A DNA stretch of 64,000 nucleotides from Nitrospinales bacterium (GTDB taxonomy: Bacteria; Nitrospinota; Nitrospinia; Nitrospinales; VA-1), in assembly GCA_965262115.1 (NCBI GenBank), contig OZ253496.1, forward strand, positions 2,112,001-2,176,000, in the 5' to 3' direction. The position numbers were made by a program, and so were the translations under genes. Shown piece by piece: positions 2,407 through 34,116 of this stretch. The notes below the pieces were generated by a model, which saw only the letters and a list, made by a program, of their open reading frames with translations, was not told where the DNA came from and did no database searches. The first letter of the stretch is position 1. Each line of letters begins with the position of its first letter.

Positions 2407-2498
2407 TTAGCGGGGGGGGGGGCATTAGCAACGACTCTTCAAGCCGAGGTGATCGCTTGTTTGCCAGCAAAAGCTATTACCCCTTGTATGTTGTTCAT

Positions 2499-2706
2499 AA
2501 GGGGAATTTGTAGTAGTTGTACCTGTGAGCCCTGTGGGAAGCCGGTTTTGTGTTTTCCACAAGCTCCCAGGATTTGATTCAGGGCACAATAGATCGTTTA
2601 CCCCTTGGGCTTTTAAGCCCGTCCCGAAGCGCAGATCGTTGTGTCCTATTTTGATTAACCCGAACAGTTGCCTGGGCCACTGAGCCCGCATCGGCAAGGC
2701 TGGGAG
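2499..2706 (+). ncRNA. Predicted bridge RNA (5' stem-loop, target-binding loop, donor-binding loop); ends approximate
   Basis: Hairpin 2522-2571; target loop 2582-2646 with guides TTTACCCCT (2597-2605) and GTCCCGAAG (2621-2629); donor loop with ACAGTTGC (2664-2671) and GCAAG (2694-2698). Confidence 0.88.
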
Positions 2707-2714
2707 ACCAAATT

Positions 2715-3665
2715 ATGAATCAGAAACCCCATTTTATTGGCATCGATATTTCTAAACTCCATCTGGATGTTGCTGACAGCATGACTCAAGAAACCTGGCA
2801 AACCGCTAACAATGAAGAAGGGATTGCTGGTTTGGTCGAGAGTTTATCCGCCTTAAATCCTCCATTGATCGTTTTGGAAGCCACAGGCGGCTTAGAGATC
2901 CCGTTGGCTTCGGCCCTGGTTGCGGGTCGACTGCCAGTAGCCGTGGTCAACCCGCGACAAGTTCGTGATTTTGCCAAAGCCACCGGGAAACTGGCAAAAA
3001 CCGATGTCATTGATTCTCTTGTGCTGGCCCATTTTGCCAAGGCCGTACGTCCTGAGGTCAGGAAAATCAAAGACGAAGAATCTCTTGAACTCTCAGCTCT
3101 GGTGACACGCCGTCGCCAGTTGATCGAGATGCTGACCAAAGAAAAAACCCGTCTAAAACAAGCTCCAAAATGGATATGTAAAGACATTAAGGAGCATATC
3201 GAATCTCTTAAAAAACGCTTGCGAAAAATCGATGGCGACCTTTCCAGAACCATCAAAAACAGTTCTGCCTGGCGTGAGCACGACCAGATTATACAAAGTG
3301 TTCCCGGTGCCGGTCCCGTTCTGGCTGTCAACCTCTTGGCCGGGGTTCCGGAACTTGGAGTTCTTAATCAGAAGCAAATCGCCGCCCTCATCGGTCTCGC
3401 TCCCCTCAATCGGGACAGCGGAAAGTTCCGGGGCCGCCGGTGTATCTGGGGCGGCCGCGCCAATGTGCGTGCCGCTTTATACATGGCCGCCGTCACTGCC
3501 ATGCAGCATAATCCCGTGATTCGTACCTTTTACACACGCCTCATCGAAAAGGGCAAACCCTTTAAAGTTGCCATTACCGCATGCATGAGAAAGTTATTAA
3601 CGATCATCAATACCATGATCAAAACAAAAACACTCTGGAATGAAAATCTCATTACCAGCACTTGA
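2715..3665 (+). CDS. IS110-family DEDD recombinase/transposase
   Basis: GIDISK, LEATG and KTDVID (DEDD tetrad); Tnp-domain catalytic Ser in RDSG; GGRANVRAALYMAA. Confidence 0.97.
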   Translation: MNQKPHFIGIDISKLHLDVADSMTQETWQTANNEEGIAGLVESLSALNPPLIVLEATGGLEIPLASALVAGRLPVAVVNPRQVRDFAKATGKLAKTDVIDSLVLAHFAKAVRPEVRKIKDEESLELSALVTRRRQLIEMLTKEKTRLKQAPKWICKDIKEHIESLKKRLRKIDGDLSRTIKNSSAWREHDQIIQSVPGAGPVLAVNLLAGVPELGVLNQKQIAALIGLAPLNRDSGKFRGRRCIWGGRANVRAALYMAAVTAMQHNPVIRTFYTRLIEKGKPFKVAITACMRKLLTIINTMIKTKTLWNENLITST

Positions 3666-3667
3666 CA
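3662..3667 (+). promoter_or_regulatory. -35 half (TTGACA) of the IS110 circle-junction promoter
   Basis: Perfect TTGACA overlapping the stop codon; after end joining it lies 17 bp from TATGTT (2487-2492); same arrangement at 33960-33965. Confidence 0.85.
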
Positions 3668-3682
3668 TTTAACACAGTTGCT

Positions 3683-3794
3683 TCGGGGCACGAGATACCC
3701 GTGCCGGGCATGAAGGCAAAGGTAAAATATCACATACCCGTGCCGGGCATGAATTTTAAGGAAGAGGACATCACAGCTATGAAAGAATATCACG
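3683..3794 (+). repeat. Nested 39-41 bp TACCC-hairpin mini-elements: right part of the IS-interrupted unit plus units 3696-3734 and 3735-3775
   Basis: TACCCGTGCCGGGCATGAA..ATCACA twice; closely paralleled by 38618-38697. Confidence 0.85.
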
Positions 3795-32543: not shown

Positions 32544-32632
32544 ACGAGTTTTTATTGGATGCATTAATGCGGTTTATTGAGCCGCAAACATTTCGGGCCA
32601 GACCCGAACAGTACCCCTTGTATGTTGTTCAT

Positions 32633-33004
32633 AAGGGGAATTTGTAGTAGTTGTACCTGTGAGCCCTGTGGGAAGCCGGTTTTGTGTTTTCCACAAGCTC
32701 CCAGGATTTGATTCAGGGCACAATAGATCGTTTACCCCTTAGGCTTTTAAGCCCGTCCCGAAGCGCAGATCGTTGTGTCCTTGTATGTTGTTCATAAGGG
32801 GAATTTGTAGTAGTTGTACCTGTGAGCCCTGTGGGAAGCCGGTTTTGTGTTTTCCACAAGGCTCACAGGGTTTGATTCAGGGCACAATAGATCGTTTACC
32901 CCTTGGGCTTTTAAGCCCGTCCCGAAGCGCAGATCGTTGTGTCCTATTTTGATTAACCCGAACAGTTGCCTGGGCCACTGAGCCCGCATCGGCAAGGCTG
33001 GGAG
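32633..33004 (+). ncRNA. Predicted bridge RNA region with two 5' hairpins, two target-binding loops (32716-32780, 32880-32944) and one donor-binding loop
   Basis: Same guides as copy 1; donor guides at 32962-32969 and 32992-32996. Confidence 0.82.
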
Positions 33005-33012
33005 ACCAAATT

Positions 33013-33963
33013 ATGAATCAGAAACCCCATTTTATTGGCATCGATATTTCTAAACTCCATCTGGATGTTGCTGACAGCATGACTCAAGAAACCTGGCAAA
33101 CCGCTAACAATGAGGAAGGGATTGCTGGTTTGGTCGAGAGTTTATCCGCCTTAAATCCTCCATTGATCGTTTTGGAAGCCACAGGCGGCTTAGAGATCCC
33201 GTTGGCTTCGGCCCTGGTTGCGGGTCGACTGCCAGTAGCCGTGGTCAACCCGCGACAAGTTCGTGATTTTGCCAAAGCCACCGGGAAACTGGCAAAAACC
33301 GATGTCATTGATTCTCTTGTGCTGGCCCATTTTGCCAAGGCCGTACGTCCTGAGGTCAGGAAAATCAAAGACGAAGAATCTCTTGAACTCTCAGCTCTGG
33401 TGACACGCCGTCGCCAGTTGATCGAGATGCTGACCAAAGAAAAAACCCGTCTAAAACAAGCTCCAAAATGGATATGTAAAGACATTAAGGAGCATATCGA
33501 ATCTCTTAAAAAACGCTTGCGAAAAATCGATGGCGACCTTTCCAGAACCATCAAAAACAGTTCTGCCTGGCGTGAGCACGACCAGATTATACAAAGTGTT
33601 CCCGGTGCCGGTCCCGTTCTGGCTGTCAACCTCTTGGCCGGGGTTCCGGAACTTGGAGTTCTTAATCAGAAGCAAATCGCCGCCCTCATCGGTCTCGCTC
33701 CCCTCAATCGGGACAGCGGAAAGTTCCGGGGCCGCCGGTGTATCTGGGGCGGCCGCGCCAATGTGCGTGCCGCTTTATACATGGCCGCCGTCACTGCCAT
33801 GCAGCATAATCCCGTGATTCGTACCTTTTACACACGCCTCATCGAAAAGGGCAAACCCTTTAAAGTTGCCATTACCGCATGCATGAGAAAGTTATTAACG
33901 ATCATCAATACCATGATCAAAACAAAAACACTCTGGAATGAAAATCTCATTACCAGCACTTGA
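33013..33963 (+). CDS. IS110-family DEDD recombinase/transposase (protein identical to 2715-3665)
   Basis: Identical translation; at least one synonymous difference (GAG vs GAA near 33112). Confidence 0.97.
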   Translation: MNQKPHFIGIDISKLHLDVADSMTQETWQTANNEEGIAGLVESLSALNPPLIVLEATGGLEIPLASALVAGRLPVAVVNPRQVRDFAKATGKLAKTDVIDSLVLAHFAKAVRPEVRKIKDEESLELSALVTRRRQLIEMLTKEKTRLKQAPKWICKDIKEHIESLKKRLRKIDGDLSRTIKNSSAWREHDQIIQSVPGAGPVLAVNLLAGVPELGVLNQKQIAALIGLAPLNRDSGKFRGRRCIWGGRANVRAALYMAAVTAMQHNPVIRTFYTRLIEKGKPFKVAITACMRKLLTIINTMIKTKTLWNENLITST

Positions 33964-34116
33964 CATTTAACACAGTTGCTTCGGGGCATGAAGACAAATG
34001 AAGGGATGTTACACGTGACGCTGGACTATAAGTAATAGTTTTGCTTGCGCATTATTTATTGGCGGGTGTTAACGCCATATATACCGGGATAAGCCCGTAA
34101 CCTAGGAGAAAGTACA

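Follow-up and report, generated by a model that had tools for sequence, protein, structure and literature searches.

What directs a mobile element to its landing sites is the question raised by a locus in a 64,000-nucleotide (nt) stretch of Nitrospinales DNA (positions 2,112,001 to 2,176,000 of contig OZ253496.1, forward strand, assembly GCA_965262115.1), hereafter the window. The window comes from a small, marine, Nitrospina-type genome assembled as a single contig of 2.68 Mb, and it holds two copies of an insertion sequence (IS) of the IS110 group. The element encodes a recombinase that, very probably, is guided by a bridge RNA made from the element's 230-nt left end. The layout of copy 1, to which the coordinates below refer unless stated otherwise, is as follows:

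2485..3680, + strand: IS110-group insertion sequence body, 1196 nt (1198 including one core)
2478..2482, + strand: left target half TACCC, belonging to a dispersed hairpin repeat; the identical 5-mer is found at 22 of 25 left junctions and in empty TACCCCTTCGGGGCA sites
2483..2484, + strand: left CT core dinucleotide; an occupied site has the element and one CT more than an empty one
3681..3682, + strand: right CT core dinucleotide, placed by comparing occupied and empty sites
3683..3687, + strand: right target half TCGGG; the repeat runs on to 3690 and past (TCGGGGCA is 3683-3690)
2485..2492, + strand: right donor half TGTATG.., including the -10-like TATGTT (2487-2492)
3674..3680, + strand: left donor half ACAGTTG, the same as left donor guide positions 2664-2670
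3662..3667, + strand: -35-like TTGACA of the right end, overlapping the recombinase stop codon
2715..3665, + strand: recombinase gene, 316 amino acids (aa), with a DEDD RuvC-like domain and a Tnp domain bearing the catalytic Ser

The 316-aa protein matches DEDD_Tnp_IS110 (PF01548; E = 1.1e-24) and Transposase_20 (PF02371; E = 1.9e-20), both beyond the curated cut-offs. Its residues 1-304 align to the solved recombinases of ISCro4 (9T56; E = 6.8e-33) and IS621 (8WT6; E = 4.3e-30). In these alignments D11, E55, D97, D100 and S235 occupy the columns of the IS621 catalytic set, D11, E60, D102, D105 and S241 (PMC11208158). By sequence the element is thus a bridge-recombinase member of the IS110 group. 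The non-coding left end measures 230 nt (2485-2714) and the right end only 15 nt (3666-3680), so that no long inverted repeat is possible; CTTGTAT at the start of the left end is conserved across relatives. An original prediction, made from the letters alone, had called the locus an RNA-guided IS110 recombinase with DEDD residues and a catalytic Ser, had placed both window copies between TACCC-CT and CT-TCGGGGCA, and had listed a 5′ hairpin, a stem, two loops and guides in the left end. The two domains and five catalytic residues bear out the recombinase family named in the first of these claims, coordinates were found for the flanks of both copies, and each of the left-end features is present in the sequence.

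The genome offers many more insertions to compare. BLAST of the genome returned 29 matches, comprising 24 near-full copies and five fragments; the main family consists of 22 copies with 98-100% identity to the window copy, and the other two share 88%. Searching the genome with Pfam gave 24 DEDD_Tnp_IS110 matches and no other IS110-family element. An intact 316-aa open reading frame (ORF) is retained by 15 of the 24 copies, among them both window copies, whose proteins are identical; seven others end at 264 aa, and in both 88% copies the ORF ends at 172 aa. Recent activity of the element is suggested by these intact ORFs together with the near identity of the main-family copies. In the contigs of four sequencing runs, the element is covered at many times the depth of its flanks.

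The landing sites are nearly uniform. A regular expression caught 25 left junctions, with TACCC in 22, ACCCC in two and GTGTC in one, and a further copy shows TACCC-CT and then an extra T. The 26 right junctions read TCGGG (23), GCGGG (2) and CGGGG (1). Empty TACCCCTTCGGGGCA sites number 28 as exact matches and 161 at up to one mismatch in the genome, against a chance expectation of 0.32 for one specific 12-mer. Because some empty sites (TACCC-CT-TCGGGGCA) carry outer flanks identical to those of occupied ones (TACCC-CT, the IS, CT-TCGGGGCA), the element boundaries and the single shared CT are fixed. Insertions land in a dispersed repeat of 40-41 nt, at its hairpin end (CCCC-TNC-GGGG). Two more variants of this hairpin repeat, ATACCCGTGCCGGGCATGAA, with another loop, lie 3′ of copy 1 at 3691-3760, and a terminator scan flags one of them on the minus strand.

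Uniform flanks would also result if a single original insertion had been copied along with its repeat-flanked DNA, by homologous recombination or segmental duplication. This explanation is quite improbable, since the flanks fall into at least 13 different left-flank contexts by our own reading, the same sites exist empty, and homology between copies stops exactly at the CT cores. The facts that speak for copying are a 40-nt left flank (GATCCCGTATAAACCG...CCCTTCGAG) common to ten copies (e.g. C1:657563, 1417996 and 1775105), several right flanks that recur with different left flanks, and a 219-nt right flank common to the two 88% copies. The first of these is the end of another multi-copy, repeat-bearing element that is also found unoccupied. 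That flank looks like the end of another insertion sequence, seen at C1:2518200-2519400 with a long opposite-strand ORF and carrying one 40-41-nt repeat unit; unoccupied versions lie at C1:696148, 1392067, 1667675 and 2683861.

If a bridge RNA steers the recombinase, the left end should encode guides for both the target and the joined element ends. The predicted RNA and its guides are laid out as follows:

2522..2571, + strand: predicted bridge-RNA 5′ stem-loop, found in both the minimum-energy fold and the centroid fold
2582..2646, + strand: target-binding loop module, 65 nt (13 stem pairs, 12 of them compensatory; 96% of cells paired)
2582-2590/2638-2646, + strand: target-loop outer stem GGGCACAAT/GTTGTGTCC, followed by a second stem (2592-2595/2634-2637) and an inner hairpin (2607-2620)
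2599..2605, + strand: left target guide, effective part TACCC plus core CT, in target sense
2623..2629, + strand: right target guide CCCGAAG, complementing CT plus TCGGG; A2627 reads the T after the core
2630..2631, + strand: target-loop handshake guide CG; C2630 can pair donor position 7 (G)
2658..2705, + strand: donor-binding loop module, 48 nt, with outer stem 2659-2661/2702-2704 and hairpin 2673-2688
2664..2672, + strand: left donor guide ACAGTTGCC, matching right-end ACAGTTG plus the first core base (ACAGTTGC is 2664-2671)
2689..2698, + strand: right donor guide CAU-CG-GCAAG, discontinuous, pairing CT-TGT-ATG at the left-end start with one G-T pair (GCAAG is 2694-2698)
2699..2700, + strand: donor-loop handshake guide; G2699 can pair target position 7 (C)

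The donor-loop guides match the joined element ends, ACAGTTG-CT-TGTATG, and the target-loop guides match the landing site. Across the clade, guides and flanks vary together. Out of 7 non-core positions, the left guide agrees with the element's own left flank at 4.54 and with non-cognate flanks at 2.38 (35 loci); for the right guide, pairing with the cognate right flank reaches 4.61 of 7, as against 1.72 with non-cognate flanks (28 loci). These column-anchored figures take in loci with probably mis-called ends. None of 10,000 permutations attained either observed value. The column-anchored test replaced a search for the best unanchored 9-mer flank match in each element's own left end, which was too noisy (left 6.95 versus 6.0; right 6.97 versus 6.10).

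Counting by position narrows the guides. Cognate identity of the left guide is 0.69-0.86 at the five core-proximal bases, compared with about 0.3 for non-cognate flanks (0.61 beside the core). Cognate complementarity of the right guide reaches 0.96-1.00 at exactly five bases past the core, with 0.25-0.36 for non-cognate flanks, fractions that are upper bounds because low-scoring loci were dropped; past these five bases there is no signal (0.13 versus 0.10; 0.22 versus 0.22). G2621 is invariant, and position 2622 is without a match to cognate targets in the clade. These counts point to TACCC-CT-TCGGG (5+2+5) as the working target. The guides of the original prediction, two 9-mers placed at 2597-2605 (TTTACCCCT) and 2621-2629 (GTCCCGAAG), therefore hold in position and in their match to the target, and they covary with target and donor across the clade and inside the genome, but by the per-position analysis the right guide is 7 nt long (2623-2629) and not 9. 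The two extra 5′ bases are conserved scaffold rather than guide, and the G-U wobble claimed there falls outside the guide, since only the 3′ seven bases of GTCCCGAAG serve as one in this clade. A left guide reaching one base past the core was considered and rejected: in the 88% copies the change T2606 to G fits the target, but among 23 relatives agreement at that position is 0.30 against 0.25, and locus L032 is also off. Also set aside was an 11-nt stretch (ACCCGAACAGT) that the left flank of copy 2 shares with the donor loop; this stretch is unique outside the copies, yet it lies at about chance level by estimate, given the 48 flanks examined.

The handshake bases follow the same logic. In IS621, each right-hand guide is followed on its 3′ side by two bases that, once strands have been exchanged, pair with the other DNA (PMC11208158). 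Among 35 loci, the donor-loop handshake base faces target position 7 as G-C in 25, T-A in six, G-T in three and T-C in one, so that the IS621 rule is kept in 34 of 35; the target-loop handshake base and donor position 7 form C-G in 32 of 35.

A natural experiment on specificity is found within the genome itself. Empty 12-mers of the form TACCCCTNCGGG occur 139 times, with N being A in 42, G in 39, C in 30 and T in 28. The main family, with guide base A2627, has T at all 23 right junctions, whereas the two 88% copies have C at guide position 2627 and both lie at CT-GCGGG sites. A single guide change thus tracks a single target change inside one genome. In the relative G016 the guide base is G, and its five assembled right junctions read G, C, T, T and T, four of which are pairable counting G-T; G016 also has copies at non-repeat sites that keep just the short guide match.

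These observations bear on the idea that protein-DNA contacts or DNA shape suffice for the recombinase to recognise the hairpin repeat, with the left-end RNA acting only as a 5′ leader or regulatory RNA for the recombinase gene. Such recognition would suit a target that is a stable hairpin (CCCC-TNC-GGGG) in a repeat, and for ISPpu10 a target stem-loop is reported in a preprint to add specificity (10.64898/2026.03.19.712850); a leader role would suit the GGGAG at 2702-2706, which lies in the donor-loop stem, so that the fold could control translation. In relatives with unrelated targets, however, guide bases vary along with the flanks and the stems still remain paired, one guide change follows one target change in the same genome, and the G016 copies at non-repeat sites share the short guide match alone. 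Recognition by protein or shape is therefore highly improbable. That the recombinase mobilises the hairpin repeat itself is very unlikely. The repeat abounds in the relatives G013 and G007, where a decayed copy and a partial domain match occur, and is rare in two genomes that lack the family; but A, G, C and T are about equally frequent after the core, whereas the guide reads only T, and the repeat copy inside the other insertion sequence has no bounding CT cores.

Steering by a bridge RNA further requires that the left end fold into the appropriate structure. The predicted fold has three parts, the 5′ hairpin and two stem-loops each with a large internal loop. The folding energy of the left end is unremarkable (z = -1.7), and the structure was therefore tested by comparison among relatives. 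Twenty-six stem pairs were written down from the window sequence and then scored on an alignment of 37 rows, made up of 150-nt stretches from 34 of 80 fetched related loci, the window, one 88% copy and one Nitrospina relative. Excluded were same-assembly repeats, duplicate or N-bearing stretches, loci without anchors, and four loci with large insertions or overrunning the stretch. Standard pairs fill 94.5% of the 957 cells, and 19 of the 26 pairs have changed on both sides. None of 500 shuffles attained any of five pairing measures, and sliding the 3′ partners by 1-3 columns lowered pairing to 32-46%. The two-loop RNA structure is thus supported by covariation in sequence, and one subfamily shows a perfect 10-bp outer stem in the 5′ hairpin. 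In three cyanobacterial relatives (L047, L049 and L057) an extra GC-rich hairpin lies within the left donor guide region (AACAGTGCCTTCGGCTCACG...), because of which the donor-loop anchor failed on them.

How the RNA might be produced is indicated by the element ends. Joined, they would bring TTGACA (3662-3667) to within 17 nt of TATGTT (2487-2492), and a promoter scan of the linear form found no + strand promoter in the left end. For IS621, a promoter is rebuilt across the joined ends (PMC11208160), and a comparable, putative sigma-70-type promoter at the junction would start an RNA near 2499 here. RNA folding and translation may compete, because the putative ribosome-binding site, the Shine-Dalgarno-like GGGAG (2702-2706), sits in the donor-loop stem. 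By analogy with IS621, the element would excise as a circle, and the joining of its ends would build the TTGACA-17-TATGTT promoter. A recombinase tetramer with the RNA would then pair the target loop to a TACCC-CT-TCGGG site and the donor loop to the circle junction. Ser235 would cut after CT, strand exchange would be aided by handshake bases C2630 and G2699, and insertion would be scar-free except for the shared CT.

Several points weigh against a bridge RNA acting in this way. The joined right and left ends (the circle junction) appear in none of the contigs of the four runs, and contigs cannot show rare forms. No sequencing run recorded as RNA contains the stretch, and the one run guessed to be RNA covers only 3283-3500, part of the ORF, at a depth of 3-5, which speaks neither for nor against expression. 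An Rfam search of the left end gave no + strand family. The left donor guide reads CC at the position of the CT core, which is usual in the clade, yet a mismatch. In the relative G013, a truncated copy at a CT-TCGGG site carries the guide CCUGGAG, and this guide can match the site only if two wobble pairs are allowed. Between the two 88% copies, 4 of 1193 positions differ, and both copies may stem from one event, because the 219-nt right flank and the same broken ORF are common to both. The per-position count for the right guide dropped five of 28 loci, two for wrong right-end calls and three that were merely low-scoring. Insertions are not all independent, because ten copies lie in copies of another insertion sequence bearing the repeat; by our own reading, independent events number fewer than 23, with at least 13 distinct left contexts. 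Some copies may also have spread or rearranged by homologous recombination, because flank pairs are shuffled.

The shuffling is visible genome-wide, where equal left flanks occur with different right flanks and vice versa. For instance, C1:1417996 combines another left flank with the right flank of window copy 1, altered at one base. Such pairs suggest rearrangements between copies.

The sole notable Rfam match of the left end is RF02234, sX15 of Xanthomonas, on the minus strand (window 2568-2724; 36.1 bits versus a gathering threshold of 55); the observation also takes in locus L110 at 779-937. Read as its reverse complement, the original pXCV183 locus of sX15 contains the donor-loop motifs CCCGAACAGTTGCC and AAGGCTGGG, and 28 nt after them a 24-codon ORF beginning MNGIGIDVCKAKL resembles the start of an IS110 recombinase. 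The 2011 sX15 paper described a complementary RNA, asX7, and ten homologues in Stenotrophomonas. Because the pXCV183 locus has both the donor-loop motifs and the recombinase-like ORF start, sX15 may model the antisense of a bridge RNA from a decayed IS110 element.

Copy 2 of the window raises a question of its own. The original prediction had it between the same target halves as copy 1, which is correct, but missed that the copy is a composite with a duplicated module:

32619..32779, + strand: extra partial left end, 161 nt, upstream of copy 2, with the 5′ hairpin and the complete target loop, without a donor loop
32782..33978, + strand: copy 2 body, with a recombinase identical to that of copy 1
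32612-32616 and 32617-32618, + strand: left outer junction of the composite, TACCC and CT
33979-33980 and 33981-33988, + strand: right outer junction of the composite, CT and TCGGGGCA

The 5′ hairpin and target-loop module are therefore present twice in copy 2. The extra partial left end, which has one G-to-A change in its inner hairpin, ends exactly at the last target-loop stem base and is joined via a CT (32780-32781, equal to 2646-2647 in the intact copy). Copy 2 could have arisen by insertion of a circle at the internal CT followed by homologous deletion, or by plain tandem duplication via the 3-nt microhomology CCT; the flanks of the internal CT resemble neither guide pair and so favour neither route. 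It is doubtful that copy 2 as a whole (32619-33978) represents a nascent bridge-RNA element possessing two target loops, its module duplicated in tandem exactly from one CT to that at the base of the target-loop stem. Were it so, and were the outer left end used at excision, the circle of copy 2 would carry two target-reading loops and one donor loop. It would then show how multi-loop bridge RNAs arise, and that the recombinase can cut at a CT within its own RNA gene.

Remnants of three kinds are found elsewhere in the genome. The truncated copy at C1:2034345 starts exactly at the left-guide-encoding DNA, after a typical repeat left flank, a structure consistent with loss of the DNA from the left junction to the guide-encoding TACCCCTTG. 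Its cause could be the recombinase acting on a built-in half-site, or slippage between the 9-nt direct repeats; half-match recombination has been reported for IS621 in a preprint. At C1:2519305-2519443 the left end's first 63-94 nt recur as a snap-back inverted duplicate, and at C1:2282889-2283131 lies a right-end fragment with a junction short of one T.

By recombinase protein, the closest relatives are found in Nitrospinaceae and Nitrospina assemblies at 65-73% identity. Among 18 genomes of the same genus, three contain related DNA and 15 do not, several of the latter being incomplete; two of the three show many fragments at contig ends, as expected of a multi-copy element. The 15-mer TACCCCTNCGGGGCA has 337 exact occurrences in G013, which holds one decayed IS copy, and 85 in G007, which has one partial domain match. 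It is rare (five and six occurrences) in two genomes of the genus without the element family, and has no occurrence in a genome of another family. In G007 it often stands in regular runs with a spacing of about 77-123 nt.

The element is a new example of the bridge-RNA mechanism described in 2024, not a new mechanism, and the IS110 family has already been surveyed by the thousand. A literature search for Nitrospina and IS110 found no relevant paper, the supplementary tables of PMC11208160, which may list the element, lying outside that search. To a specialist, the guide and target switch within one genome and the link to a hairpin repeat are neat rather than surprising. As a compact orthologue of 316 aa whose target is 5+2+5 and whose right guide is naturally longer, the element nevertheless joins the candidate programmable recombinases. 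It comes with a natural specificity experiment: depending on guide base 2627 (A or C), copies lie at the CT-T or the CT-G version of a repeat whose four versions are about equally common. The 40-41-nt hairpin repeat serves as a landing pad, and a repeat copy inside another insertion sequence drew in ten insertions. That the element has helped to rearrange its genome is suggested by the presence of 24 copies in 2.68 Mb and by the shuffling of their flank pairs.

Among the closest known systems, IS621 of E. coli, with its 177-nt bridge RNA (Durrant et al. 2024, PMC11208160; Hiraizumi et al. 2024, PMC11208158; PDB 8WT6), is characterized at the bench, whereas the element described here is known from sequence alone. 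The bispecific architecture that the original prediction had drawn from IS621 is matched in the two-loop structure, the guides, the CT core and the DEDD plus Ser recombinase. Both elements have the same two-domain recombinase with aligned catalytic residues, a long left end, a short right end and a promoter across the joined ends (here putative), as well as an RNA (here predicted) in which a 5′ hairpin precedes the target and donor loops. They also share a discontinuous right donor guide (PMC11208160), handshake bases and a target in a repeated extragenic hairpin, and the 65-nt target-loop module (2582-2646) corresponds to nucleotides 34-98 in IS621 (PMC11208158). In contrast, the sequences are distant, with a protein match at profile level only. 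The target is 5+2+5 (TACCC-CT-TCGGG) rather than the 7+2+2 of IS621 (ATCAGGC-CT-AC; PMC11208160), so that the right guide is longer and the left guide shorter than in IS621. The donor-loop module is shorter here (48 nt), the left donor guide has CC at the core, and the putative ribosome-binding site lies inside the donor-loop stem.

ISCro4/IS622 (PDB 9T56; 10.1101/2025.05.14.653916) is the best match among solved structures, and it differs from the present element in the same respects as IS621. The IS1111 group, which uses seekRNA or bridge RNA, has the same recombinase family and RNA-guided logic, but its members have long right ends, sub-terminal inverted repeats of 7-17 bp and an RNA downstream of the gene (PMC11208160). 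Membership in that group was considered and rejected, given the 230-nt left end, the 15-nt right end and the structured RNA predicted upstream of the gene. ISPpu10 of Pseudomonas putida is likewise an IS110 element that targets many identical copies of an intergenic stem-loop repeat, according to a preprint (10.64898/2026.03.19.712850). Its stem-loop is there a GC-rich extension 5′ of the paired target, whereas here the core CT lies inside the hairpin, its C being the last base of the stem and its T the first base of the loop.

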